Part shown: piece by piece, positions 32,941 through 57,535 of the stretch
How positions within the stretch are numbered: the stretch's first letter is position 1
Layout: each line of letters begins with the position of its first letter
NCBI GenBank assembly: GCA_964016885.1
Contig: OZ024741.1
Location: forward strand, 115,878,001-115,942,000
DNA length: 64,000 nucleotides
Reading direction: 5' to 3'
Source of the DNA: Eledone cirrhosa
Lineage: Eukaryota
The notes under the pieces: generated by a model
Told to the model about the DNA's origin: nothing
The model's database searches: none
The model's input: only the letters and a program-made list of their open reading frames with translations
Position numbers and translations under genes: made by a program

Positions 32941-35900
32941 TCATCATCATCATCACCATTTTACTCCGTTCTTCCACGCTAGCATGGGTTAGAAAGGTTG
33001 TCCTGTTTCGGGCAAGAGCCCGTCGGCTGACCATGTCTTGCTCATACAGGAACTGACTCTGGCTTGATTTCTACAGCTGGATGCCCTTCCTAACACCAAC
33101 CTCATTTACAGTGAGTGCTAGGTGTTTTTTTTCCGTTGCGCCTACACGTCCACTTTACAGTGTGGGCTGGGTGCTTTTTTGTCGTGACACCTTCACGACC
33201 ACTTTGCAATGGGAGGGGATGGGGGCATATTGTCTATATGCTTCAGCTTCGGCTTGTACCCGTGGGTGGTCGGGTTTTCTGTGTTACTGCGTGACGCCCG
33301 AGGTCACGGTCGTGTGTCATCGCCTTTGAGAGGTGTAATTGGTTAAGGTCGGCTTTTATCACCTCATCCCAGGTCTTCTTCGGTCTCCCCACTCCGCGGT
33401 TTCCATCGACTTCTAGTGCTCTGCATCTTTTTATGCAGCTGTCATCCTTCATACGCATCACATGTCCATACCAATGCAACCTCCTCTCCTGCACACAGAA
33501 TGTGATTCCTCTGATACTCAGTCTCTCTCTCAGTTCGTTTATGCTTTGCCGCTCGTATATTACTATTACACATCCATCGGAGCACGCAGGCTTCGTTTCT
33601 TTCTAATCTATGCAAGTCTTCTACAGACAACGCGCAGATTTCACTAACATTGCTGTTCGTATACACGCATCATACATTCTACCCTTCATTTTGAGGGAAA
33701 AGCCTTTTGCAGCTAGCAGTGGCGGTAGCTCCCTGAACTTCTTTCATCCCGTTCTTACCCTAGTTATTATACTTTCCGAACACCCACCTCTGCTGCTAAT
33801 TCGGTCACCTAGGTATCAGAAGCTGTCTACTGTTTCTACAGAGCCCTCCCAGAGTTTGGTGGTGCTTGTTTCCTGTGGCTGTTTGCTGCTTGCTGTCTCA
33901 GCGCAGCTGCTACATGTGAAGCCTACATTCTTAGTTAAGCTTCCTGAGACCCCATTACATCTCTTGTGTACCCATTGTTTACATTTCGGGCAGAGGATGG
34001 AGTTCCTACCTACAGCTTTCCTACATACTGAACAAGGCCATTTCCCTGAGTGGATCTGGGTTCTGTTTTCTCGTCTACTTACAAGGACCTTATTCTTCGT
34101 CAGGTTGACTTTGAGAACCCTCTTTCTAGTCCCTGCTTCCATGTTTGGAATTTCTACCATAGATTCAGCTATAAGTGCGAGGTCATCTGCATACAGGAGT
34201 TCCCATGGGCATCTGGTCTTAAACTCCTCCGTTATTGCCTGCAAAACTATGATGAACAGGAGAGGGCTAAGAACAGAGCCCTGGTGGACACCGACCTGTA
34301 TACTAAATTCCTCGCTATAGTTATTGCTAATCCTAACTTTGCTGACTGCTCCCCTATACATGGCTTGTACAGCTTTCACAAGCCATTCATGTACTCCTAG
34401 TTTTCTAATAGCCCACCAGATTATAGCCCGGGGGACTCTGTCAAAGGCTTTCTCCAGATCGACGAATGCCAGGTAGAGTGGCTTACTCTTAGCTAGGTAC
34501 TTTTCCTGTAACTGCCTCACAAGGAAGAGGGCATCAGTGGCGCCTTTTCCTGGTACAAACCCAAATTGCATCTCATCTAGCTTCACTCGGTCCCTAACCA
34601 AATGTGCTATAACACTTTCTGTTACTTTCATGACCTGGTCCATCAGCTTTATACCTCTATAGTTTCCTCTATCTAGTGCATTACCTTGACCCTTGTAGTA
34701 GTTGACAATAATGCTACTGCACCAATCATTTGGTATGACACCTTCTAGTATTACCTGGTTAACAATACGTGTGGTTATGGTGTGACCTACCGAGCCAGAT
34801 GCCTTCATCATCTCCGCAACTATACCCAATGGCACGGTTGCCTTCCCCGTCTTCATATCTTTGATTGCCTTACTTACTACGCTGCTCCTGACTTGTACTG
34901 CTGGCCCCTCTATAGGGTCTATTTGGGGTAGGGTCTCCTCTGCCCATGCATTCTCCTCATTTAGTAATCTTTCATAATTGCTCTTCCACGCATCTTTCTT
35001 CTCAGCACTTGTGAGGGCTAGCTCACCTTTATCATTCCGGATACACTTCTCCCCAAGACATCACAATTCTCTCTGACACACTGCCTCGCAATCTTGAACA
35101 CCTCCTGTTTCTGGTACTCACGCTGCAAGACATGCTTGAATTTTCTATCTTCCGCTTCCCTTCTAGCTAAGTATACTTGTCGCCTAGCTTCCCTCCTGGT
35201 CTCTATGTAACGTACCCTGCTGCCCCCGTTCTTCCATTCTTTCTATGCCTGTTTCTTAGCCGTAACTGCCTCATCTACCTTATTGTTCCACCACCAAGTC
35301 ACTCTCCTCCTGCCTGTGGTCTTACTCCAACCACAGATCTCATCCGTCGCCTTTAGTAAGTAATTTTTAGGAAGTCCCAGTTCTCTTCTACATTAAATGT
35401 CTCTATCTGTTCTTCTTTACTGTCAATAAACGTCGAGTAAAATATCTTTAAATCTGTTACTGGCTGAGGGTTCTTCCAGCTTCCAGATCTTTCTTCTCCA
35501 GGTTGCCTTCTGTTTCCAAGTTCATCTAGTTCTGACAATGAGGTCGCTGACAACTAAGTTATGTTGGGAGGTACATTCCTCACCTGGGAAGGCTTTTGTG
35601 TTTATGACCGTCCATCTGTCACGTCCTCTGATGAGGATAAAATCTATCTGACTAGAATGCTCCCTTGATCTATAGGTGATCAGGTGGTTGTCGGGTTTTT
35701 TGAAGTTTGTGTTACATATCGACATGTCATTGGCGTCGCAGAATTCTAGAAGCCTGAAGCCTTCTTCATTTCTTGTGCCAAACCCGTGGCCTCCATGGAC
35801 TCTATAGAAGCCGTCATGGTGTTTATCTACGTGTCCGTTAAAAGCTCCTGCAATGATTAGGAAGTCATTGTCATTTGCTAGAGCAGTAGTGTGCATTAGG

Positions 35901-39034: not shown

Positions 39035-41282
39035 ATCATCATCATCATCAGGTTTAGCGTCCGTGTTCCACGCTTGCATGGGTTTGGACGGGGGTTTTCC
39101 CACTTGAGGCAAGAGTGGTTGTCTTGCTCGCAGGTTTTCTACAGTTGGATGCCCTTCCTAACACCAACCACATTTACAGTGTGGGGCTGGGAGGTTTTTA
39201 CCGTGTTGCCTACACGGCCACATTACAGCGTGGACTGTCTGGCGGGTTTTCTACAGCTGGATGCCCTTCCTAACACCAACCACATTTACAGTGTGGGGCT
39301 GGGAGGTTTTTACCGTGTTGCCTACACGGCCACATTTACAGCGTGGACTGTGTGTTTTTTGTCGTGACACCTACACGATCTCATTTGTTTCGGCCTGGAT
39401 GTTGTGGGACCAACATAACTTTACATTGAAAGGGGCGGTGTGGGTGGGGTGGAGGTGGTGGGACGGGGGTGTGTTTTGATAGAGATGCCTACTGACTGTA
39501 GTAGGTTTTTACTTTGTATTTAGGTAAGGCGGGTCTTCTCTATTACTGAGTACCGCCAAAGGTCTCGGTCCAGTGACATTGTCTTGGAGAGGTGTAAGCG
39601 TGTGAGGTCGGAATTTATCAGCTCGTCCCATGTTTTTCTGGGTCTGCCTACTCCGTGGCTACCGTCTATCTTTATTGCCCTGCACTTTGTTATACAGCTG
39701 TCGTCTTTCATGCGCATCACGTGACCGTACCAACGTAGCCTTCTCTCGAGTAAACAACATCTGATCCCTCTTATTTCTAATTTTTTCCTTAGTTCGTTTA
39801 TGCTTTGCCGTTCACGTATATTACTATTGCACATCCAGCGGAGCATGCAAGCTTCGTTCCTCTCTAGTCTGCGTATATCCTCTGCACACAATGCCCAGGT
39901 CTCACTGCCATGCAGCATTGCTGTTCGTATGCAGGCATCGTATAACCTGCCTTTCATTTTTAGGGAGAACTCTCTAGCGGCTAATAGTGGTATAAGCTCT
40001 CTGAACTTTTTCCAAACAGTTCTGACTCTAGCTACTGTACTTTCAGAGCACCCTCCCCCACTGCTGATTTTGTCACCCAGATAACGGAAGCTGTCCACTA
40101 TTTCTATAGAACCCTCTGCGCAGTTGAAGGAGCTAGTATTTTGTGGGCACTTGCTGCTACTTATTGCACCAGAGCACCGGCCACATGTAAAATCTATGTT
40201 CTTAGTTAGCTTACCTGTGATCCCACTACATCTTTTATGCACCCATACTTTGCATTTGGGACATAAAATGGAGTTTCTACCTACGCCTTTCCTACACACT
40301 GAGCATGGCCATTTCCCAGATGGGACCGCCGCCTTATTTTCTTTCCTACAAACTAGAACTTTAGTCTTAGCGAGGTTAATTTTAAGGCCTTTTGATTCTA
40401 GGCCGTGCTTCCATGTTTGGAATTTCTTCTCTAGTTCGGTCATTGATTCAGCTATGAGCGTTAGATCATCTGCGTATAGGAGTTCCCATGGGCAGCCGGT
40501 TTTGAACTCCTCTGTTATAGCCTGAAGGGCAATAATAAATAGTAGGGGGCTAAGAACACAGCCCTGATGGACACCAACTTTTACGCTAAACTCTTCACTA
40601 TATTTGTTGTTAATTCTAACCTTACTGACTCTTTCTTTATACATGGCTTGTATAGCTCTCACAAGCCATTCGTCAACACCTAGTTTTCTAAGAGACCACC
40701 AGATAATGGAACGGGGGACTCTGTCGAAGGCTTTCTCCAAGTCGACGAAAGCTAAGTATAGGGGTTTACTTTTAGCTAGGTACTTCTCCTGTAGTTGTAC
40801 AATGAAAAGAGCGTCTGTGGTACTTTTGCCTGACACAAACCCGAACTGCATTTCATCTAGATCAATTCTCTCTCTGATTAGTTGCGCTATTACTTTTTCC
40901 GTGAATTTCATGACCTGGTCGATTAATTTAATGCCTCTATAGTTACTCCTATCTAGGGCATCTCCTTTTCCCTTATAGCAGTTAACGATGATGCTGCTAC
41001 GCCATTCCTTCGGAACAACCCCATTCTGTACGACTTGGTTAACTATCCGGGTGACCATGGTGTGTCCCACCGAACCAGATGCCTTCAGCATCTCAGCAAC
41101 TATTTCCGAAGGCCCAGCCGCCTTACCCGTCTTCATATCTTTGATTGCCTTACTTATTATACTACCTTCAACTAACACTGCTGGTCCCTCTATTGGATCG
41201 ATCTGGGGGAGACTGTCTTTCTCCCATTTGTTCTCCTCATTTAGAAGCCTTTCGTAGTGACACTTCCAAGCTACCTTCTTAT

Positions 41283-41283
<1 letters not shown>
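39035..41283 (-). mobile_element. 5'-truncated RTE LINE, open RT-PHD-C-terminal frame (39520-41283), (ATG)n tail, ~110-bp tandem duplication in the 3' UTR
   Basis: ORF motifs NYRGIKL, DLEKAFDRVP, GVHQG, LYADD, WPCSVC..HKRC; duplicated 39133-39238 / 39245-39350; the upstream part of the 698-aa ORF is spurious read-through. Confidence 0.95.
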
Positions 41284-41313
<30 letters not shown>

Positions 41314-41331
41314 GAAAAAGAGATGAAATTG

Positions 41332-41371
<40 letters not shown>

Positions 41372-41376
<5 letters not shown>

Positions 41377-41691
41377 AAAAAGAGATGAAATTGAAAATGC
41401 AACAGGAGTCTTATTTTTTTTTAAATATATATATTTATTTGGTTCCTTTACCGGTTTCGCAGTTCTTCTGCTTTTCAAAAGGTGAGTTGAGATGGAGGGT
41501 CTGTGGATTTTCTCAAAACCACAGACCCTCCATCTCAACTCACCTTTTGAAAAGGAACCAAATAAATATATATATTTTAAAAAAAAATAAGACTCCAGTT
41601 GCATTTTCGATTTCATCTCTTTTTCTTTATACTTTCACTCGTGTAGGACACCTCGGTTATTTTTCATTTTGTAAAAAAAACCTCACTTTCT
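41372..41691. mobile_element. Palindromic solo pLTR of the same Penelope family as 28967-30765; hammerhead at 41445-41482 (-)
   Basis: Matches 28967-29160; folds back around ~41513 (ggtgagttgagatggagggtctgtgg / ccacagaccctccatctcaactcacc). Confidence 0.85.
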
Positions 41692-42084: not shown

Positions 42085-44017
42085 TTCTGAGCGCTGCGAA
42101 AGGCCAATTACTTCAGCCGAGATTCAGGATGCCCTTGTCGGCTGCATGAGGCGCAAGTCACCCGGTTTGGATAGTCTGCCCTACGAGCTTTACGTAAATA
42201 TGCCAGACTTGTTCTCCGATCTCCTCGAAGCGCTCTACTGCAAATGGCTGCAGAATGGGAGTATTCTCAGTTCTGTGAGAGGGGGAGTGGTGACGTTGAT
42301 AAGGAAAGACGAGAACAAGAGGGATACATTAGACAACTTCAGGCCCATAACTCTGCTCAACACAGAGTAAAGATTTTGGCCAAGGTGTTAGCAAAGAGAT
42401 TGGTGCTTGTCGTCGAGGATTTGGTTGGGGAGGCGCAAATTTGCGCAATCACAACCAGGTCCATACATGACAACCTCCACTTCAATCGAAAGCATTCGAT
42501 AGGGGCGACCATCCGTATCTGGAGGCTGTCCTCAAAGCAGCTAGCTTCGGCCCTATCTTCAGAAGCTGATTCGCTGCAATGCACAGCGGTATCTGCTCGG
42601 TGTTCAAGGCTAATGGCCACCTCTCAGAACCGTTTCGGGTCTCCCGATCGGTCCGTCAAGAGTGTTCTATCCCTTTCCTTCTGTACGTATTGACTCTCGA
42701 ACCTTTACGGCGGAAGCTGGAGCTGTCGCAGGGCATCCGCTCGAACCGGTTCGCGGAAAGGCTGTGTCGGCTTATGCGGACGACATCACCGTGATTATGT
42801 TGGACACCACGGCAATCGAGGTGGTCGGCACCATATTGAAGGAATATAAAAGGTTGACAGGAGCCAAACTTAACCCGGAAAAGCTCGGCACATGGAGAGG
42901 CAAGTCCATGCCGTCCAACAGCGTCGTGGAGCTCTATACGGACGGACCGGTAAAGTTGCTCGGGGTTTGGTTCGGACCAGACCTACAGGTGGAAAAGAAT
43001 TGGGACGACATAACGAGCAGGGTAGCCAGTCTGACCCAAAAATGGCCTGGGAGGGAGCTATCACTGAAAGGTCGCGTGGAGGTGGCGAATGCGTACATCG
43101 CGTCCGTCATCTGCTACCGCCTGACCGTCGTGCCTTGTCCCCGTCCGCGCCTCGTCAACGGAGAGGCTTTGGGCTTCGACGATGTCGAACTGACCAGTCT
43201 GTTCCGGGGGACTTTCGAGCCGGGGACGATGGTTATCTTCCAGAAATCCCTCACTTGCCAGTGCTACCGGGGGCCACTGCCGGTTCGAGATAAATTCTAC
43301 AGGCACAGAAGTGCTGTCAGACGGACCTGCCAGAGATGCGCACAGAGCGGCGAAACCATTCTGCATGCACTTGTCCAAACACCGTGCATTACTGACTTGT
43401 GGTGTTATGTCGAACAGCTATTGTCGTATCTAGAACGTATCCAGCTATCGGCTGAGTCAGAGAGAAGATCGACCCGCCGTTTTCCTTTGGCCAGGAAGGG
43501 CAGGCAATTTTCCTCTGTCTGGTGGCAATTGCGAAAGAGGTTGTATGGTGGATCAGATTGAAAGGACTGAAGACAGACACATTTCTCTTGGGCCAATCCC
43601 TCATCAACTTCTTCAAGTTTCACCTGCAAAGGAAGGTGAGGGTGGAGAGAGAAATTGCTGCCCCCTAGTACATTTGCTAAAAGATGGATAAATGTGGCGA
43701 CAATGGCCCGTGTGAGTGGGCCTACTCTGACCATGCGCCTACAGGCTGGCTTATTTGAGGGGAGAGGAGTGCTCTATGTGCCCTAGAAGCGCAGAGTGGT
43801 TCAGATTGGTGGGGTACCTGAGTCACCCCTGGGTCTCCCCCCCCCCTATTGGGGAATTTATTTTGTTATGCATAATTTATTTTATATATTTTTTATATCT
43901 TCATTGTTAAATTAGTCTTGGCATTGTGCACTTTTACTCGAGCTTATTGTAAACCCCCAATGTCCGTGTTTTTGTATTGTTCCCTACATATCGGCCCTTG
44001 TGGCCAATAAATGAAAT
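42085..44017 (+). mobile_element. 5'-truncated, internally deleted Tx1/L1 LINE (RT to 3' end), related to 8341-12227
   Basis: KSPGLDSLPYE, NFRPITLLN, SAYADDIT, PDLQVEKNW..LSLKGRVEVAN, CQRC..ETILHAL; 3' end cccttgtggccaataaatgaaat. Confidence 0.9.
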
Positions 44018-44075
44018 CATTATTGCTGGCCTTGTGCCTAAAGTAGAAACAATTATTATTATTATTATTATTATT

Positions 44076-45010
44076 CTTTGAGTCTCAGTCATTGATGTTA
44101 GTTAACTGGAAAGTTTGTTGAAATGAATATCAAGCCACTACGTGCAGCCTCAGATATTCAGGACGTATCGGAGGGTTCTTGCTGTTCCCAGCAAGCATGC
44201 CATTTGAAGTGTTCCAAAAAGCGGGGCGGAGCCATACTTCTTTAACCAACTTTGACTTCATGGCAGTTCCAAATCCTTTTTACCTCCCACTTTAAGTCCT
44301 GGTATCGGTTAATTTTCTCCCTCTCCTTCTCTTGCACTCTCGTGTCGAATGGGCAGGCCACATCCACAATCAGGCACGATCTTTTTTCCTTGTCCAAAAC
44401 CACCAGGTCTGGTCTATTGTGTTCCAGTTTCTTGTCCGTCTGTATCCTAAAATCCCACAGCACCTTCACCTGATCGTTTTCTATCACCGACTCCGGCTTA
44501 TGCTCATACCACTTCTCAGAATGTGGTAAATTGTTTACCTTGCATAGGTGCCAGTGGATCACCCTGCCCATCACATCATGTCTCGCCTTTATAGTGAGTC
44601 TGGGCTACGTGTTTACACTCGGATACAATGTGAGCCACAGTCTCCTCTCTCTCTCCACAGATCCTGCACAGTGGGATAGCCTCCTCCTTGTAAATATGGT
44701 GTTTCAACCACTTCGGTTGGAGGGCCTGCTCTTGCTCAACAACTGTCTGATGTTATCTGCCACCTTGAAGATCTCTAGGCTTTTGGTGATTCAAGAATGA
44801 GGCACCATGTCAAATGCCTTTTTGTAGTCTATCCATCTCATGGCAAGACCAGTGTGTCTCCTCTTGCAATTCCTCATTACCATCTTATCAATAAGTAACT
44901 GGTCCTTTGTACCACGGGACTTCTTTCGGCATCCTTTCTGTTCGTCTGGTAACAAGTTGTTTGTGTGGAGGTGATGGCAGATTTCCTCAGACACAATGCT
45001 TGTCAACAGT
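44076..45010 (-). mobile_element. R4/Dong family A, older divergent copy (A1) with several internal deletions
   Basis: A-type 3' UTR, RLE fragment 44242-44574 and RT fragment 44740-45010 juxtaposed. Confidence 0.9.
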
Positions 45011-46040: not shown

Positions 46041-46059
46041 CAGTATTATTATTATTATT

Positions 46060-49000
46060 TGCATTTATCTTGCTTTATGTTTCTACGAGTTATCACCAAG
46101 TCACAACCAGTGACCTCAAGAGACAACAAGGTCCGCCATGTTCAAGAAAGAACACACATATTCACACATGCATCCTTAGTGTTTAGACTTGTGATGTACT
46201 TATATTGACAGGATCTTCCTTAGTATATGGGCAGTTCCCATTAGTACTATCGTTTGTATTTCTCCTATACGCGGGTTTCCTGAGATTTGCGATAAGTAAA
46301 CATTAGACCCCTTAGGTATCATCCCTAGAGCGCCTACAACCACTGGTATTGTTTTAGTTCTCAATTTCCAAATTTTTCCAATTTCTATCTCCAGGTCCTT
46401 ATACTTGCTCAATTTTTCAAATGTTTTTATAGATACATTCTTGTCTATTGGAACAGACATATCAATTAGCAGGCATACCCTCCTTTGAAAGTCCTTCAAT
46501 ATTATATCAGGTCTATTTGCATCTATTTTTCGGTCTGTTTGGATGCTAAAGTTCCACAAGATTGAGATGTGATCTTTTTCAAGTATGGGAGGTGGTTGAT
46601 GCTCCCACCAATTCTTTTGATGGGGCAGTTCAAAATGCTTACACAATATCCAATGTATGTATTGTGCAGCTCTGTCATGCCTGTTTAGGTATTCGGTTGG
46701 AGCTATAGGACTGCACATTGAAATTATATGGCCAATGGTCTCTGGTTGTTTTTTACATACACGGCATAATGGGCTGCATTCATTTTTTATTATGTTGGCT
46801 TGGTAATTTTTTATTGGCAGACACTGGTCTTGTGCTGATATAATCAGTCCTTCAGTCTCCGATTTCAGTCCAGAGGATGGCAACCACTGATGGGTTAAAG
46901 TTTTGTCAACATCAGGATTGTTAGCTCGCTCTGGGTATTTTCCATACAGAGGCTTTTCTTGCCATTTCTTGCCAGTTTCTGTAGCAGCTTTTTCTGTGTT
47001 TTCCATTTCAGCAGTAAATGGGACTTCTGAAATTTGTAGTCCATTACTGTATCTTTGTGCATCTTTTGTAATGGAATATGATCTTTTAATGCTTTCGTGT
47101 TTCAAAACGAGTTTGATCATCCAATCATGTGACTCCCTTAGATATGTAGATAATCCAATTGTTGCAGTTTTCAACGCAATGTCTAACTGGATTAACCCAC
47201 GTCCTCCTTCTTTCCTAGGGAGATATATTCTATCTGTATCTGCCTTAGGGTGATGCATTCTGTGCATGGTTAAGAATTCTCGAATTTTTGTATCGAGCCT
47301 ACGGATGTCTTGACATTGTAACTGTAGGTTACTACTGGTATGGCAAGCGTGTTTATGGCATCGATCCTATTCCTTGCATTCAATTCCGTTCTTAAGATTG
47401 CTCTTACTCTGCGGTAACATTCCTTCCTTATCCTTTCCCTCATTGTCGAGTGCTTGATTCCGTCTCCTTCACAAACACCTAGATATTTATAAGTTTCCTC
47501 TTGATCAAGTTCTCTTATCACATTCCCCCGATCAAGATTAATGTCTGAACTCTTCAGCAGATTTCCTCTGGTGAACGTTGCTTTGGCGCATTTATCTAGT
47601 CCAAACTCCATTTTAATGTCATCACTGAACTGCTCCACAGTGGATAATAGCCCTTGCAATTGTTCATCATTTTTCGCAAATAGTTTCAGGTCATCCATGT
47701 AGAACAAGTGATTAATGGTTTTGTCATAGACTTTATATCCATGCTTTGCTTCGTTGAGCATTTTACTTAATGGTATAAGTGCGATGCACAATAAAAGCGG
47801 TGATAAAGAGTCACCCTGAAATAATTCCACAATTAATATTAACTTCTCCAGCTTCCAGTGATTTTGTTTCACTATTCAAAATGAGTGTCGTTCTCCATGT
47901 CTTCATACTGAATGACAAAAACATCCTGACAACGGGGGATATTTTGAAAATCTCTAAACATTTTTCAATCCAACTGTGTGGCAAACCATCGAATGCTTTT
48001 TTTATAATCTATCCAAGCAATTGATAGATTTTTGTGTCTATTATGACAATCTTCCAGTATCATTTTGTTAACCAAAAGCTGATCCTTACAGCCATATGAG
48101 CCTCGTTTACACCCTTTCTGCTCAATGGGAAATAGGTCATTTGTTATCAGGTGGTCATATGTATATTCAGTTAGGACTGATGTTAAAATTTTATACATTG
48201 TGGTCAAGCAAGTTATCGGTCTGTAATTTTTGGGATTGTTTGTCTCATCATTCTTCGGAAGCATGAATGTAATGCCGTTAACTAGCCATGATGGTATCTT
48301 TTCTGGCTCCTTAGCTATTTCATTGTAAAGTTGGGCTAACAGCTCATGAGACTCTGTCAAGGCATTTATCTAAAAATGTTGTATTTTGTCTTTTCCTGGG
48401 GATTTCCATTTGTTGGTTTTTGTTAGCGCCAAACGCAACTGTTCAACTGTTATATTTTCCCATATTTGTTCCTCAAGGTGAGCTGTATCGTTCATTTGTC
48501 TGTCTATCCATGGGCCATGTATATTATGAATTTTTTCTTCGGCCCAGATCTTTTCCCAGAATTCTTGCACTTCCTCCTTGGGTGGTATTGATTTAGCAGT
48601 TATTGTTGACTTACCAATTTTTCTGTAGAAGTTTCTTTGGTTGTTTTTGAACATATTATTGTCCTTATAGAATCTAGATCGTTTTTCAAAGCGCCTTATA
48701 CGAGCAGCTTTGGCCGACACTTTTTGCTTGATTATTTCTATCAGCATGTCTATGTCACTTGTTGATTTTATACTGTACTTTCTTTTCAATTTTCTAAGTT
48801 TAGTTTGTTTAACATGTTCACCTACTTTATAGTTTGTTAAAATTTCTATGTCAGATCGGAGAAGGTTTATTTGGCGATTGATGTTCTCTTGCCAAGTAGA
48901 TTTGTTATGGTAATTCCTTTGTTTTTTCATCTTCACTCCACATAAGTGAGTGGTGACTTTAGCCGATGCATAATAGAGATGATTTAAATCAGTAATGTTT

Positions 49001-50932
49001 AGTTTGTTTGTGATGATAATGTTTTTGATAATTATGTTAGTCTTGTGTATTATCTTTTGGTTCTGTTTGGAGTTCTGGATCTTAGAGAGGGTGTCTCGTT
49101 GCCCCCATGTCAGATTCTTTCATTTTCATCCATTCGAACGTAATTTCATCCTTCAAGTTGGCAAGTTCATTCTTATTCATTTATTTATCATTTACGATCA
49201 CATTGTTTTCATTTGGAGTTTCATCTTGAGCATGCACTCCCTCAACTTTTTCGATCCTTTCTTTAATTTGTTCTGTTGTCAGTGATTCCGCCTCAATCCT
49301 GGGATTCGAAGTGTTACAATTTACCTCGTTTTCACTGACACATGTTTCATTTTCCCTTCGCTGACTTTGTGCTAATATTTTGATCTGATCAATTTCTATA
49401 TCAGTTAGTAACTTTTTTTTTACAATATTTCTTCGTATATTGGCTAGTTTCTTACTATCAATATAGCCTCTGTTTTCGGGATGTTTCTTTTTCCAGTTGA
49501 TATATGTCTGTTCTGTATTCGATGTATTTGATGGGTAGTACATGGCAGTGTAGAAAGCCTCAAGGACTTCTTTATTATCTTCCCTTGACCATTTTTCTCT
49601 CTTTTTCTTTGGATTTCTTGGTGGTGAGCATGGAGGGCCAACAGTAGGAGTATTCCGGTTATGGGAGGTCTCCAGCTCCGAAGTGATGGGAAGGTTTGAA
49701 CCATTAGCTGATTTTTCGAACCCAGTCTGGTTCCTCTCTGAGGGACGTGGCCCTTTTTGACCCGGGTGACGGCCGATCCGGTATGAGATTTTATCATTAG
49801 ACATTTACTTTATTTTGTCGCGTTTTATCCTTATCCGCCAAGGGGTAATCATTTCGTGTTACGACTTCTAGGACGAGTGTCAACCAAGACTAGAGGGGTC
49901 GTCCTCCCCTAGAGACACGGCTATTCCCCGCCGGCCGCCATCCCGGTATTTCTTGGTCACGGGGTTTTCTTTTTTGTTGTTTTTGTTAAATTGTTATTAT
50001 CATGAGTGGTTCCTTAATGTGAGCATTGCGTGGTTTAAGAATGAAATTATTAATAATATAATATACTTTTTGCTGAAGTTGCCTGTTATTGTTGTTGGCT
50101 ATGTCGGTGGTGGTGCTGGGGCTTTTTCTATTGTTGGTGGGGAAGGGGTGGGGCCAGCAGTGCCATAGTCGTTGACGTTTGGCCGGTGGCCGGGTCACTA
50201 AGTCAATCTATTTATATCTTTTGCTAGCCTCTCCCTTGTCTAGTGATACCGCCACCTTCCCCTTTCTTAAGTTAACAGAAGGTAATGGGGGAATAGCGGT
50301 GATAGCAATGAAGGAGTGATGGCGGCGGTGATGGGATAGTGGTGGCAATGATGGATGGAGTGGTGGCGGCGGTGACTATAGTGACGGTGTTGTCGTTACT
50401 GAGTGTTGTTGAATAGACTGTAGTTTTGTTTGATGTGTATCTATGCGTTTGTCGTGTATATTTAATATATGTGTTCACATATTTCCTTAATATTGGAATT
50501 AAACATTTTGTTAAAACTTGAGACAATAATAATAGTAATTATTATTATTATGCTGAGATTGGTGATTGTGGTGGTGAATTGCCGTTATCTGGCTGTTGTA
50601 TTTAGTGTACACAGAGGGGTGATGGGGTAGGTGGTCTATCTATTTCCTGGTGTTGGTGAAATTGCTGATATTTGGCTGTTCTATATAGTGTAGACAGGGG
50701 CGGTTTTCTTCCATTTATAACCATTTTCTTTTTTATATATAAAATGTATAATACAAAATTGAATATTTGAGCGATATAACATTATATTATGGATCCGAAT
50801 TTTTCTGAGACTTGAGTCGGATGCTTTATGTATCATTTGTACTAAGAATTGTTATTTCACAATTGATTTAAATATGTTAAAAATCAAAAACTTACAGGAG
50901 CGATTTCATGACCTTCTATCCAACACGTGCGT
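46060..50932 (-). mobile_element. R4/Dong family B, full-length but frameshifted copy (B1) including 5' leader
   Basis: ORF pieces 49181-49804 (KWSREDNK Myb-like), 48370-48936, 47965-48360 (NYRPITCL), 47270-47872 (FQGDSLSP, FYMDD), 46200-47267 (CCHC, RHD, RPDII). Confidence 0.92.
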
Positions 50933-50940
50933 CTTCTTCC

Positions 50941-51029
<89 letters not shown>

Positions 51030-51030
<1 letters not shown>

Positions 51031-52947
51031 TGCATTTATCTTGCTTTATGTTTATACGAGTCACAACCAGTGACCTCAAGAGACAACAAGGTCCGCCATG
51101 TTCAAGAAAGAACATACATATTCACACATGCATCCTTAGTGTTTAGACTTGTGATGTACTTATATTGACAGGATCTTCCTTAGTATATGGGCAGTTCCCA
51201 TTAGTACTATCTTTTGTATTTCTCCTATACGCGGGTTTCCTGGGATTTGCGATAAGTAGTCGTTAGACCCCTTAGGTATCATTCCCAGAGCGCCTACAAC
51301 CACTGGTATTGTTTTAGTTCTCAATTTCCACATTTTTCCAATTTCTATCTCCAGGTCCTTACACTTGCTCAATTTTTCAAATGTTTTTATAGATACATTC
51401 TTGTCTATTGGAACAGACATATCAATTAGCAGGCATACCCTCCTTTGAAAGTCCTTCAATATTATATCAGGTCTATTTGCATCTATTTTTCGGTCTGTTT
51501 GGATGCTAAAGTTCCACAAGATTGAGATGTGATCTTTTTCAAGTATGGGAGGTGGTTGAGGCTCCCACCAATTCTTTTGATGGGGCAGGTCAAAATGCTT
51601 ACACATTATCCAATGTATGTATTGTGCAGCTCTGTCATGCCTGTTTAGGTATTCGGTTGGAGCTATAGGACTGCACATTGAAATTATATGGTCAATGGTC
51701 TCTGGTTGTTTTTTGCATACACGGCATAATGGGCTGCACCCATTTTTTATTATGTTGGCTTGGTAATTTTTTATTGGCAGACACTGATCTTGTGCGGATA
51801 TAATCAGTCCTTCAGTCTCCGATTTCAGTCCAGAGGATGCCAACCACTGATGGGTTAAAGTTTTGTCAACATCAGGATTGTTAGCTCGCTCTGGGTATTT
51901 TCCATATAGAGGCTTTTCTTGCCATTTCTTAGCCAGTTTCTGTAGCAGTTCTTTCTTTGCAGTTACTTTTACCTGCTTTGCTTTTTCTGTGTTTTCCATT
52001 TCAGCAGTAAATGGGACTTCTGAAATTTGTAGTCCATTACTGTATCTTTGTGCATCTTTTGTAATGGAATATGATCTTTTGGTGCTTTCGTGTTTCAAAA
52101 CGAGTTTGATCATCCAATCATGTGATTCCCTTAGATATGTGGATAATCCAATTGTTGCAGTTTTCAACGCAATGTCTAACTGGATTAACCCACGTCCTCC
52201 TTCTTTCCTAGGGAGATATATTCTATCTATGTCTGCCTTAGGGTGATGCATTCTGTGCATGGTTAAGAATTTTCGGATTTTTGTATCGAGCCTACGGATC
52301 TCTGTGCTTGACCAGTTGATGACATTGTAACTGTAGGTTACTACTGGTATGGCAAGCGTGTTTATGGCATCGATCCTATTCCTTGCATTCAATTCCGTTC
52401 TTAAGATTGCTCTGACTCTGCGGTAACATTCCTTCCTTATCCTTTCCCTCATTGTCGAGTCCTTGATTCCGTCTCCTTCACAAACACCTAGATATTTGTA
52501 AGTTTGTTCTTGATCAAGCTCTCTTATCACGTTCCCCCGATCAAGATTAATGTCTGAACTCTTCAGCAGCTTTCCTCTGGTGAACGTTGCTTTGGCGCAT
52601 TTATCCAGTCTAAACTCCATTTTAATGTCATCACTGAACTGCTTCACAGTGGATAATAGCCCTTGCAATTGTTCATCATTTTTTGCAAATAGTTTCAGGT
52701 CATCCATGTAGAACAGGTGATTAATGGTTTTGTCATAGACTCTATATCCATGTTTTGTTTCATTGAGCATTTTACTTAATGGTATAAGTGCGATGCAGAA
52801 TAAAAGCAGTGATAAAGAGTCACCCTGAAAAATTCCACAATTAATGTTAACTTCTCCAGCTTCCAGTGATTTTGTTTCACTATTCAAAAGGAGTGTCGTT
52901 CTCCATGTCCTCATACTGAATGACAAAAACCTCCTGACAACGGGGGA

Positions 52948-52950
<3 letters not shown>
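51030..52950 (-). mobile_element. R4/Dong family B, 5'-truncated copy (B2) with open frame
   Basis: ORF 51160-52950, RT C-half plus RLE; (ATT)n on both sides. Confidence 0.95.
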
Positions 52951-52978
<28 letters not shown>

Positions 52979-52990
52979 GTTATTGTTATT

Positions 52991-55900
52991 CCTTGAATCT
53001 CAGTCATTGATGTTGGTTAACTGGAAAGTCCGTTGGATTGAATATCAAGCCACTACCTGCAGCCTCAGATATTCAGGACGTATCGGAGGGTTCTTGCTGT
53101 TCCAAGCAAGCATGCCTTTTGAAGCGTTCCAAAAAGCGTGAAGGGGCCGATTTTCTTTAACCATCCCTGGAAACTTTTGGAGATAGTCCCCAGTGCGCCT
53201 ATGACAATCGGGATCACTTTGACTTCATGGCAGTTCCAAATCCTTTTCACCTCCCACTTTAGGTCCTGGTATCGGTTAATTTTCTCCCTCTCCTTCTCTT
53301 GCACTCTCGTGTCGAACGGGCAGGCCACATCCACAATCAGGCACGATCTTTTTTCTTTGTCCACAACCACCAGGTCAGGTCTATTGTGTTCCAGTTTTTT
53401 GTCCGTCTGTATCCTAAAATCCCACAGCACCTTCACCTGATTGTTCTCCATCACCGCCTCTGGCCTATGCTCATACCATTTCTCAGAATGTGGTAGATTG
53501 TTTACTTTGCACAGGTGCCAGTGAATCACCCTGCCCATCACATCGTGTCTCCAGCCCTTATAGTGGGTCTGGGCTAGGTGTTTACACTCGGACACAATGT
53601 GAGCCACAGTCTCCTCTCTCTCTCCACAGATCCTGCACAGTGGGCTAGCCTCCTCCTTGTAGATATGGTGCTTCAACCACTTCGTTTTGAGGGCCTGCTC
53701 CTGCGCAGCCATTAGCATTCCTTCTGTAGCCTTTTTGAGGTCTCCTCTTCTCAACCAGTTCCATGTCTGTGGATCTCTAAATTCAGTTTTCTCAAAGAAG
53801 GTACTATGAAGGGATTTTCCCTTAAGGCTGCTCTTCCTCCTTGATGTTATTTCCTCCTTGGATATCCCCTGGCCTACTGTCCCCTCCTTCAGTACAGCTC
53901 TGAGCATTGGCTCCTTACTATAGGTCAGGTATTTGTATAGGTTGTTTTTCTCCATCTGAACACAGTCCTCTATGCTGATAAGACCTCTTCCACCCTCAGA
54001 TCTCCTTAGGTAGAGTCTATCGACATCACTCCTCTTGTGGAACATGTTGTAGATAGTCAATAGCTTCCTAGTCTTCCTATCCATTTCTTTTTGTTCAGCA
54101 ACATTCCATCTCAGAATTCCCGCACTGTACCTAATAATAGACACAGCTCGGGAATTTACTGCGCTTATGGCATTTCTGCTGTTCAGATGTGACTTCAATA
54201 CGCTCCTTACTCTCCGAATGTATTCAGTTCTTAACAATTCCTTCATTTTTTTGTTCTTTATGCCATCAGCCTCCAGAACGCCCAAATACTTGTATCCTTC
54301 CTCAGAGTCAATTTCCTTTATCATCTCACCTGTTGGTATCTGGATCCCGTTACTTCTGCTCAACCTACCCCTCTTCATCACAATGACTCCACATTTACCA
54401 ATACCAAACTGCATACATATATCACTGCTGAAAATACGGACAGTGTCAACAAGCACATCCAACTCCTTCTCACTTTTCCCGAAGAGCTTAAGATCGTCCA
54501 TGAAGAGGAGGTGATTGATGGTAAGCTCTCCCCTTCCCAACTTGTATCCTGCTCTCACTTTTCGCAGCATAATGGTCAAGGGCATCAGGGCAAGGACAAA
54601 CAACAGAGGGGACAGGCTATCTCCCTGGAAGATACCTCTCTTGATCTTCACGCTTCCCAAGGATACTCCAGTTGATGTCAGCTCTGTCTCCCAGGACCCC
54701 ATACTCCTGCCTAGCAACTGTCTGATGTTATCCGCCACCCTGAAGATCTCCAGGCTTTTGGTGATCCAGGAATGAGGCACCATGTCAAATGCCTTTCTGT
54801 AGTCTATCCATCCCATGGCAAGATCAGTGTGTCTCCTCCTGCAATTCCCCATTACCATCTTATCAATAAGCAACTGGTCCTTTGTACCACGTGACCTCTT
54901 TCGGCATCCTTTCTGTTCGTCCGGTAACAAGTTGTTTGTGTGGAGGTGATGGTAGATTTCCTCAGACACAATGCTCGTCAACAGTTTCCACATTACGGGC
55001 AGACATGTGATAGGTCTATAGTTGGTAGCATCATTACCCTTGATTCGGTCTTTCATTATCAGAACTGTGGTACCTTTTGTCAACCACTCTGGCACCTCAC
55101 CCGACACCAAGCAGTCATTGAACATGGCCGTCAGCTTCGGGTGGAGGGATGTTAAATGTTTAATCCAATACCCCTGCACACCATCTGGGCCTGGTGATTT
55201 CCAGTTGGTTAGTTTTTTGGCTTGCCCCTTAAGAGTTTCAACTGTGATACTCAAATCAGTCTGTTGTCGTGCCTGCTCACCGATCTCCCTCTGTACTGTC
55301 TCAATCCACCCTGCCTGGGCATTGTGTCTAACATCCTGCTCCCATATTCCTCTCCAGAATGTTTTAGTTTGTTCCGCCCCAGGGATCAAGTCGTTGCCTC
55401 TTTCTTTCCCCTGAAGCTGTCCAAACAGCATCTTCTGGTTGTTGTCGAACATGCGGTTCTGTTTATACTGACTGACTCTGTTCTCGTATCGCCTGATTTT
55501 GGCACTCTTTGCTACAATGCGTTGCTTCAATTCCTCTATGATAATATTTAGCTTTTTACTCCTAGTTTTGTATTTTATTTCCAGTCTATTTTTAGTGCCT
55601 ATGTTTTTTAGTGTCCCATTCAGTAGTGACTCAAGCTTTCCTATGTCATTTCTCATTTCCCCGATTTGCCCACTCAGTCGCTTCTTCCACCACGGCTCTG
55701 CTCTTTCTTGTCTGTTGTTTCCTCTCGCTTTTATACCAAGTAGTTTCCTCACCGTATTTGCTGTTGCTTTGAGGATATTGTTGCACTGGTGAAGGCTCCT
55801 CGCCTCAAGGTATGGGATGACTTTGTTTACCTTAGCTGTTGTTTCTTTTAACTTTTTCCTGTCTACAAATCTTAGGTTCATAGGTCTCCCACTATCATTG

Positions 55901-57463
55901 TTCAATTCATCTACCACTAAATTTAGGATGTCAACCGAATCTTGTCCTAGCCCGTCAGCATTCATCTCCTCAGTGGCCGTATCTCTGTTCCAGGTATTAT
56001 TTATCTCAGTATTCAGATCATTGTCTGCTTCGGGTGGTTCCTCCGTTCTCAGGACCTCCTCACCATCATTTCCCACCGGCTCGCTTGTCTGGCATACTAC
56101 ACCCGCCATCTCCAAGCCATTCTCTCTGCTCAGTTCCTCCAGTTCCAGCTCGCTTATCCACCCATTAGTTCTTATTACCCGAGCCTTCCCGGCCAATTTT
56201 TGTTCATCTAATTTAAATAAACCAATCTCGTTCCAGATGTTATGCATCCGTCTCCTGTAACCCCTCTCCTTGGGGTTACTTTTCAGGTAGCATTGCATAA
56301 CAGTTCTATTCAATTCTTTCGTCCAGTTGGTTCTGGCCCCTTTCCTTCTTCTTCTTCCTCCAACATCAGCAGTATTTGGTTGACAGTCAGGTTCCTGCTG
56401 CTGAGCCAGGGGGCACCTGTTGGGTGAGAGTCTGTCACATGACGTTCTAGTCTCCATTTCACCGTTATTCGAACTGTTTATGTTCGATATTTAAACACTC
56501 TTATCGAGGATTGGCGAATGTATAGTTACATAGCCATCTGTGGATCCGCCATCCCACTTGGCCCTTGTGTGGCATTATCGCCACGCTGTATACGAACACA
56601 CATAAACAAACAAACACACAGGCAGAAAGGGCCCCAAAAATGAATAAGCATAAGTTTCATTGTAATGTAGTGTTCGAATGTCTGACTTAGTTTTTGTTTT
56701 TTAAGTTTTACTTTTTCCCCCCTCTTCTCTGTCCGTCCGCCTGCTTCTCTCTTCATTCATATTTTCTTTACGTTTTTGGGGTTTCTTTTTTTGTTTTTGT
56801 TTTTCTCTGTTTGTTTTTCTCGTTTTTTGCTGTTGTTGCTGTGTTGCTTTGGTTTTGTTGTTTGTTTTTTCTTTTTTCTTTTGAGTCTATCTATATATTT
56901 TGATGCCTTCCTCTTTGTTAGTAGTAGGAATTCTATAATGTGGGAGTAGCAGCCAGCAGTGAGAAGTGGGAGACTGCGGCGGTAGCGATACTGAGACAGT
57001 GGTGGTGGTGATGTCGATACCGAGGCAGTGGTGGCGGTGATGTGCCCGTATTACTGTAGTGATGGTGCTGTAGCGGTGGCAGTAGTGAAGGAGTCAAGGG
57101 GTGGTGGCGGCGGTGATGGGATAGTGGTGGTAATGATGGCCGTAGTGAGCGGTGGCGGTGAGGTGAAAATGTCGTTATCTGGCTGTTGTGTTTAGTGTAC
57201 ACAGATGATGGGGTGGGTGCTGTATCTAGTTTCTGGTGTTGGTGAGTTTAGCTGTCCTATATAGTGTAGCCAGAGGAGAGGAGGGGGGGTTCTTCTTCTT
57301 CCATTTATAGTCATTTTCTTTTTTGGATATACAGTGTACAATACAAAGTTGAATATTTGAATATTTGAGCCTTATAACAATATATTTTGGGTCCGAATTT
57401 TTTGGGGCTCAAGCCGGGTGCTTTACGTAGCATTTGTACTAAGAGTTGTTATTTCACAAATGG

Positions 57464-57465
<2 letters not shown>
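52991..57465 (-). mobile_element. R4/Dong family A, full-length apparently intact element (A3)
   Basis: Single uninterrupted ORF, ~1 kb 5' leader, ~75-bp 3' UTR, (ATT)n on both sides. Confidence 0.95.
53065..56457 (-). CDS. 1130-aa RLE non-LTR retrotransposon protein (Myb-like N-terminus, RT, CCHC knuckle, PD-(D/E)xK endonuclease), R4/Dong clade
   Basis: NWTKELN..GYRRRMHNIW; KSPGPDG; NYRPITCL; GIFQGDSLSP; LFMDD; EGGRGL; CRICGEREETVAHIVSEC; RHD; RPDLVVVD..VDVACP..EKINRYQDL. Confidence 0.95.
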   Translation of the reverse strand: METRTSCDRLSPNRCPLAQQQEPDCQPNTADVGGRRRRKGARTNWTKELNRTVMQCYLKSNPKERGYRRRMHNIWNEIGLFKLDEQKLAGKARVIRTNGWISELELEELSRENGLEMAGVVCQTSEPVGNDGEEVLRTEEPPEADNDLNTEINNTWNRDTATEEMNADGLGQDSVDILNLVVDELNNDSGRPMNLRFVDRKKLKETTAKVNKVIPYLEARSLHQCNNILKATANTVRKLLGIKARGNNRQERAEPWWKKRLSGQIGEMRNDIGKLESLLNGTLKNIGTKNRLEIKYKTRSKKLNIIIEELKQRIVAKSAKIRRYENRVSQYKQNRMFDNNQKMLFGQLQGKERGNDLIPGAEQTKTFWRGIWEQDVRHNAQAGWIETVQREIGEQARQQTDLSITVETLKGQAKKLTNWKSPGPDGVQGYWIKHLTSLHPKLTAMFNDCLVSGEVPEWLTKGTTVLIMKDRIKGNDATNYRPITCLPVMWKLLTSIVSEEIYHHLHTNNLLPDEQKGCRKRSRGTKDQLLIDKMVMGNCRRRHTDLAMGWIDYRKAFDMVPHSWITKSLEIFRVADNIRQLLGRSMGSWETELTSTGVSLGSVKIKRGIFQGDSLSPLLFVLALMPLTIMLRKVRAGYKLGRGELTINHLLFMDDLKLFGKSEKELDVLVDTVRIFSSDICMQFGIGKCGVIVMKRGRLSRSNGIQIPTGEMIKEIDSEEGYKYLGVLEADGIKNKKMKELLRTEYIRRVRSVLKSHLNSRNAISAVNSRAVSIIRYSAGILRWNVAEQKEMDRKTRKLLTIYNMFHKRSDVDRLYLRRSEGGRGLISIEDCVQMEKNNLYKYLTYSKEPMLRAVLKEGTVGQGISKEEITSRRKSSLKGKSLHSTFFEKTEFRDPQTWNWLRRGDLKKATEGMLMAAQEQALKTKWLKHHIYKEEASPLCRICGEREETVAHIVSECKHLAQTHYKGWRHDVMGRVIHWHLCKVNNLPHSEKWYEHRPEAVMENNQVKVLWDFRIQTDKKLEHNRPDLVVVDKEKRSCLIVDVACPFDTRVQEKEREKINRYQDLKWEVKRIWNCHEVKVIPIVIGALGTISKSFQGWLKKIGPFTLFGTLQKACLLGTARTLRYVLNI

Positions 57466-57535
<70 letters not shown>

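Follow-up and report, generated by a model that had tools for sequence, protein, structure and literature searches.

Recurrent exchange of a 5' leader, probably a promoter, between two deeply divided retrotransposon families of Eledone cirrhosa

How can two retrotransposon families that share no alignable coding DNA come to begin with the same leader, and is that leader a promoter? The question is raised by a 64,000-nt stretch of Eledone cirrhosa DNA (the window; assembly GCA_964016885.1, contig OZ024741.1, positions 115,878,001 to 115,942,000), which is an array of minus-strand retrotransposon copies with (AAT)n tracts in between (Table 1). A first-pass annotation had proposed that families A and B carry homologous upstream blocks, and we found that they do: 247/285 aligned columns are identical between 50570-50870 and 57160-57467 (76.6% counting gaps), 53/62 between 50290-50360 and 57075-57140, and 28/39 between 50205-50245 and 56885-56925, and the full alpha and beta cores of the two leaders align with a score of 490 (shuffles: mean 30, maximum 50, n=200). 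The ORFs and 3' UTRs, which had been described as unalignable by eye, indeed gave chance scores (40 vs. 31 for the first 600 nt of the ORF; 17 vs. 16 for the 3' UTRs), and the motif reported as conserved on the element strand, TATAAATGGAA, lies at 50709-50719 and 57299-57309. The (ATT)n junction of A3, however, had been mistaken for the 5' end of the element: A3 is 5'-truncated by ~70 nt, and most other A copies reach AGGGAAGAAGACGCAC, the same start as in B (50927-50942), so that the shared core, counted from this true start, comes to ~390 nt. In both families the leader forms the genuine 5' terminus.

Table 1. Features of the family A and family B copies in the window (+1 = 50942 on the B copy).
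Feature	Position	Strand
Family B copy, full-length, with beta leader, 3' UTR and (AAT)n tail	46044..50942	-
B ORF in the window, frameshift-broken	46200-49804	-
Older shared block past the beta junction, 39/46 nt with beta-A copies	50188..50235	-
Beta exchange block, ~707 nt, 92-96% to beta-leader A copies, ending at the ACTAGACAA junction	50236..50942	-
Leader core on B, beta version, +1 to about +370	50570..50942	-
Conserved CTACACTATATAG block	50681..50693	-
TATA-like motif at +224, TATAAATGGAA	50709..50719	-
Putative GT-AG intron, 168 nt, cleanly missing from retrocopies L181 and L185	50728..50895	-
First 16 nt of the element, invariant, AGGGAAGAAGACGCAC	50927..50942	-
(AAG)n/(AAT)n tract from the B 5' end to the tail of a truncated upstream B copy	50932..51030	.
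Family A copy A3, alpha leader without ~70 nt at its 5' end, (AAT)n tail	52948..57467	-
A3 intact ORF, 1130 aa: Myb-like N-terminus, RT, CCHC knuckle, RLE	53065-56457	-
Older shared block on alpha-A, decayed to a remnant	56885..56925	-
CAC-rich block on A3, homologous to 50290-50360	57075..57140	-
Alpha version of the leader core on A3, from +71 on	57160..57467	-

The two families are separated by a deep divide. Their proteins are 33-36% identical (33% and 35.7%; 39% across the C-terminal half), and in a 37-row tree a 100* split separates them, each being nearer foreign homologs than the other; intact B copies at other loci encode 1216 aa. B is 56% identical to the homolog P0118, and A (53065-56457) is far closer to P0001 (65%) than to B, which raises the possibility that A arrived horizontally and then captured a host-adapted leader. 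Both proteins contain a CX2CX8HX4C knuckle and PD..D endonuclease motifs; the RVT_1 domain was found, and the best PDB matches are R2 proteins, RLE stretch included. The first 400 aa of A and B hold no C2H2 or CCHC pattern and gave no Pfam match to such an N-terminal zinc finger, and the Myb-like N-terminus is a lead only (top Atlas matches are Myb clusters at 0.86; Pfam was blank). (AAT)n tracts, the target, lie at nearly all 5' flanks and at all readable 3' ends. As far as its available text describes it, the R4/Dong clade combines a single ORF, RT and a REL endonuclease, a Myb-like N-terminus and a (TAA)n target (PMC7998251), and by these features A and B would match the R4/Dong type, the homologs compared carrying no Dong names: they too have a single ORF with RT and a restriction-like endonuclease, no N-terminal zinc finger and a (TAA)n target. 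They differ from R4/Dong elements in sharing an exchanged leader, of which the part of that description available to us makes no mention. Five recently active Dong-R4 families are reported for O. vulgaris (PMC13282606), in whose main text, as available, the words promoter, UTR and chimeric do not occur. A control search aimed at a third RLE family recovered only intact B copies at 20/20 loci; its first look was stricter, and other RLE families may therefore exist. The window also holds an older A fragment (44052-45010, 86%) that jumps internally from C-terminal to RT sequence, and two related RT fragments with a PHD finger match that belong to another LINE type (39520-41634 and 33271-35004).

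Across the genome, the 22-nt 5' motif has 1558 exact matches (0 for the control), to which the epsilon variant, missed by that pattern and revealed by the search for a third RLE family, adds 129. Among the first 62 leader matches, on contig C1, 59 run without a tail into an A or B ORF, whereas three lack a body: L087, covered over 112 nt only; L151, whose leader continues into an A-type 5' UTR; and L164. In this last case, a single copy and possibly a short non-autonomous derivative, leader positions +1-340 run straight into the final 45 nt of B and its tail. The other top A-leader matches all continue into A (29/29), an A-type body follows in 9 of the best 30 matches of the B leader, and epsilon leaders lead into B (12/12). 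The leader is thus attached to A and B copies and is not, as a SINE-like repeat would be, mostly solo with a tail of its own.

We distinguished five leader versions (alpha, beta, gamma, delta, and epsilon), and the same version occurs on both ORFs. In 61 position-ordered copies, we counted alpha-A 31 times, delta-B 9, beta-A 7, gamma-A 5, beta-B 4 and gamma-B 3, with 2 copies bodiless. Beta-A and beta-B leaders differ by a net 0.17% and gamma-A and gamma-B leaders by a net 0.00%, vs. 9.3% for alpha-A and beta-B, the diverged pair that happens to lie in the window (~12% substitutions); leaders that differ by 0-0.2% between families sit on proteins that are 33-36% identical. Beta-A and beta-B have ~707 nt in common, up to a sharp junction. 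A single clade of A-borne leaders is rejected (AU p = 9.7e-52, a cost of 126 log units; 66 rows, with 20 alpha-A rows left out), and the leader tree is discordant with the ORF tree, in which beta-A bodies cluster apart from alpha-A and the order, taken from branch lengths in unrooted trees, is beta, gamma, alpha on A and beta, delta, then gamma and epsilon on B. Between exchanges the leader evolves faster than third codon positions: from beta to alpha on A it changes by 9.2% net (vs. 3.7% for the ORF and 5.3% for third positions), and on B by 2.9% vs. 0.8% for third positions, in groups that are small (gamma, 2-4 rows). The exchange of a 5' module between co-resident families that had been suspected is thus borne out, and we are close to certain that it is real, recurrent and young.

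Past the beta junction, the older block shared with beta-A scores 54 (shuffles: mean 31, maximum 46, n=200), which hints at a third, earlier round of exchange in the sequence. A further segment of beta-A, considered as an old copy of the core, was not accepted (37/47 nt; score 43 vs. a shuffled maximum of 44). On the B 5' region, contigs of a second organism aligned in no more than six short pieces of low complexity and therefore supplied no outgroup for the direction of the beta exchange; the other two contig runs on this region repeat genomic variants. Leaders also change within a family. L092 has a beta-type leader before an intact 1141-codon frame that is 99-100% identical to alpha-A, and is a recent within-family revival of an old leader. 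In a very young A subfamily, ~330 nt of the leader (positions 167-501) occur twice in tandem (L112, L123, L132, L135, L137, L148, L150, L156, L160, L165, and L167-L169), and 12 copies with this duplication sit in a starred 13-row clade.

The gamma leader on a B body is a chimera. Its marker has 90 exact matches, and 30/30 of those examined are an A-lineage leader on a B body, with up to 230 nt of A-only sequence followed by delta-type B. The junctions form three classes, each at short shared sequences, and two of them may be deletions of the longest. Gamma-B bodies nest in delta-B (support 87/73); once epsilon is added to the B tree they no longer form one clade. The chimera multiplied as a family, and because the A-only sequence and the intermediates lie on the A side, gamma moved from A to B. 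B copies that are intact today carry epsilon rather than the captured gamma, so this capture did not win on B.

We reasoned that joining could proceed as follows. Both families would insert in the same microsatellite arrays, where a leader could be joined to the other body by a read-through transcript, by a nested 5'-truncated insertion, or by a switch of the RT at a few shared bases; transcription would start at the leader's own first base, the protein encoded by the body would copy the chimeric RNA starting at the 3' end of that body, and a new subfamily would result. No nested founder locus was found, in that 0/16 readable 3' flanks (20 fetched) hold the rest of an A element. At one locus, a 3.55-kb unit composed of a truncated A, its tail and 290 nt of B leader abuts a full-length A that itself precedes the parent B; the copies are 13 mismatches apart and share a private 3' UTR variant. 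This fits read-through with 3' transduction and leaves a B leader ahead of A. Of the suggested template switching on read-through transcripts, then, the read-through part has one locus in its favor, while switching would leave the same products as nested insertion or 3' transduction. Separately, (AAG)n expansions or repeated copies of the leader's first 15-25 nt are frequent at 5' junctions (L008, L032, L319, and window 50932-50970), which suggests repeated priming or slippage during 5' joining.

We turn to the promoter question. Of 27 independent copies holding +300 (30 matches, 3 dropped as internal duplicates), 23 begin at +1 to +8, whatever lies upstream, and in a score-selected, partly redundant set of 106 leaders, 54 have no A or B 3' end before them and 52 follow one. 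The TATA-like motif has the same commonest letters in all 7 leader/body groups, at a spacing to CTACACTATATAG of mostly 28 nt in beta, delta, and epsilon and 36-55 nt in gamma and alpha; by consensus, we take the latter block to be initiator-like. A TATA-directed start near +252 was rejected: 0/27 copies begin between +224 and +300, and the block is therefore at most a secondary start that does not set the start of the element. Conserved leader blocks are marginally clustered (7 runs of at least 11, p=0.03; longest run, p=0.21), in a region part of which had served as a search pattern. Two retrocopies nearest to different subgroups, L181 and L185, both lack the same 168-nt GT-AG intron, and the joint (50727-50897) is also present in a DNA contig run, possibly of the same sample. 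Canonical spliced copies number only 2 of ~1600, found with a pattern that favors deletions at that donor; L179 and L180 use the same donor without an AG acceptor, and splicing to an acceptor near the ORF was seen in 0/37 non-GTAAG copies. Splicing shows Pol II processing and says nothing on promoter position. The leader had no Rfam match near the gathering score and no HDV-like ribozyme at +1 (relaxed descriptor matches occur in 3/5 leaders, 15 nt inside and inconsistent between versions), and no stable 5' fold was found (folding z, -0.4 to +1.9). From the fixed start, the spliced retrocopies and the lack of a ribozyme or fold, we infer that a Pol II transcript quite probably starts at +1 from an internal promoter in the leader.

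The arrays have other occupants. In 18/106 cases, two-ORF elements of the opposite strand lie head-to-head before a leader, their own 5' end apparently intact; they have a gag-like ORF with a zinc knuckle and, in L294, an RT match, and we presume them to be Tx1-like (at least three families; L005, L021, L033, L294, and about 43990-44030 in the window). Their target appears to be the same microsatellite, on its ATT strand.

Several other accounts of the shared leader have to be weighed. It could be a dispersed repeat in its own right, with the same microsatellites as insertion sites, as the three bodiless matches (3/62) might suggest; we regard this as extremely improbable, since all the others pass without a tail into A or B, L151 runs into an A-type 5' UTR, L164 is fused to the last B bases, and every epsilon leader examined leads into B. 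Nor do we give any real credence to a leader that A and B both received from their common ancestor and that strong constraint preserved. Several short blocks are invariant across versions, as this would predict, yet a sequence that has moved 9.2% along A, against 3.7% for the ORF, differs by only 0-0.2% between families, and the AU p is about 1e-51. Isolated gene conversion or recombination among genomic copies, without any chimeric family that retrotransposes, could have produced single mosaics such as L153 and L092 (beta leader, body 99% alpha-A). It is a very improbable account of copies that are dispersed over many chromosomes with common junctions and a derived marker (the 90 matches), that have (AAT)n ends and 5' truncations of their own, and whose bodies cluster, those of beta-A apart from alpha-A.

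A different objection grants the exchange and denies the promoter: RNA would come from host or array read-through, and the 5' end would be kept by processing, 5' joining or a need in translation. About half of the leaders do follow an A or B 3' end, one locus looks like read-through, and a few master loci could supply all RNA. Host promoters are, moreover, used by R2 and NeSL and, as the authors propose, by BLAG elements (PMC7650587, as far as available); the premise that RLE elements rely on host co-transcription thus holds for R2 and NeSL, and for Dong we found no statement on transcription in that part of the literature. Against this stand the lack of a ribozyme or stable fold, a start that stays fixed while the upstream neighbors vary, and the multiplication of chimeras after they gained the leader, and we consider a leader without promoter function unlikely. 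We therefore prefer, at a probability of about 0.7, the reading in which a shared, swapped leader, likely a promoter, passed between the families more than once and the chimeras multiplied.

Known systems resemble this one in part. According to the portions of PMC3600994 and PMC13174262 available to us, the 5'UTR of mouse L1 was replaced 11 times, and as in mouse and primate L1, families that resemble each other in the 5'UTR fail to form a clade on the ORF tree and replacement is repeated; the same three candidate mechanisms, a ladder-like succession of subfamilies and tandem duplication of promoter segments also recur, the ~330-nt duplication in A resembling mouse L1 monomers. Features of L1-type recruitment are found in A and B, in that leader and ORF trees are discordant and the recombinant amplified as a family. 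In those same accounts, however, L1 swaps within one lineage with close ORFs or from unknown sources, whereas A and B, two active RLE families with one common target, have proteins that are 33-36% identical, and what they exchange is a candidate promoter. Closer in type are BLAG2 and BLAG6, R2-like elements of Blattella germanica, described in the available text of PMC7650587 as having almost identical 5' ends through recombination. There, too, two RLE-type families share 5' ends, but as one event that includes the ORF zinc fingers, in elements that are non-site-specific and proposed to lack internal promoters; the exchange between A and B is non-coding only and recurrent, and its chimeric subfamilies amplified. 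The intron-less retrocopies may be compared with L1 SpIREs, rare retrocopies without an intra-5'UTR GT-AG intron (PMC5860796, as available), with the reservation that only two canonical copies occur here. In the full-text literature, most subscription papers and Repbase Reports lying outside this scope, we found no account of Dong/R4 families exchanging leaders recurrently; general background came from the accessible parts of PMC9115989, PMC4640811, and PMC5678591. Swapping of 5' ends is known from L1; here it spans a far deeper family divide.

For many types of dispersed RLE element the mode of transcription is described as unclear (PMC7650587, available part), and the acquisition of 5'UTRs by LINEs as speculative, as donors and intermediates are usually lost (PMC3600994 and PMC13174262, available parts). 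Here a single genome contains the donor, the recipient, the junctions and the intermediates, all of them young, and five natural leader versions are at hand for reporter tests. Consensus libraries built per ORF family would hide the shared leader. Tentatively, and at less than even odds, A and B, as two phylum-deep lineages, may draw on a single pool of promoters, in the form of an internal Pol II leader that evolves fast, changed under host repressors and was traded to and fro in at least three rounds via common arrays. If so, their regulation would evolve in concert while their proteins stay separate, and an RLE element would have a self-contained promoter.
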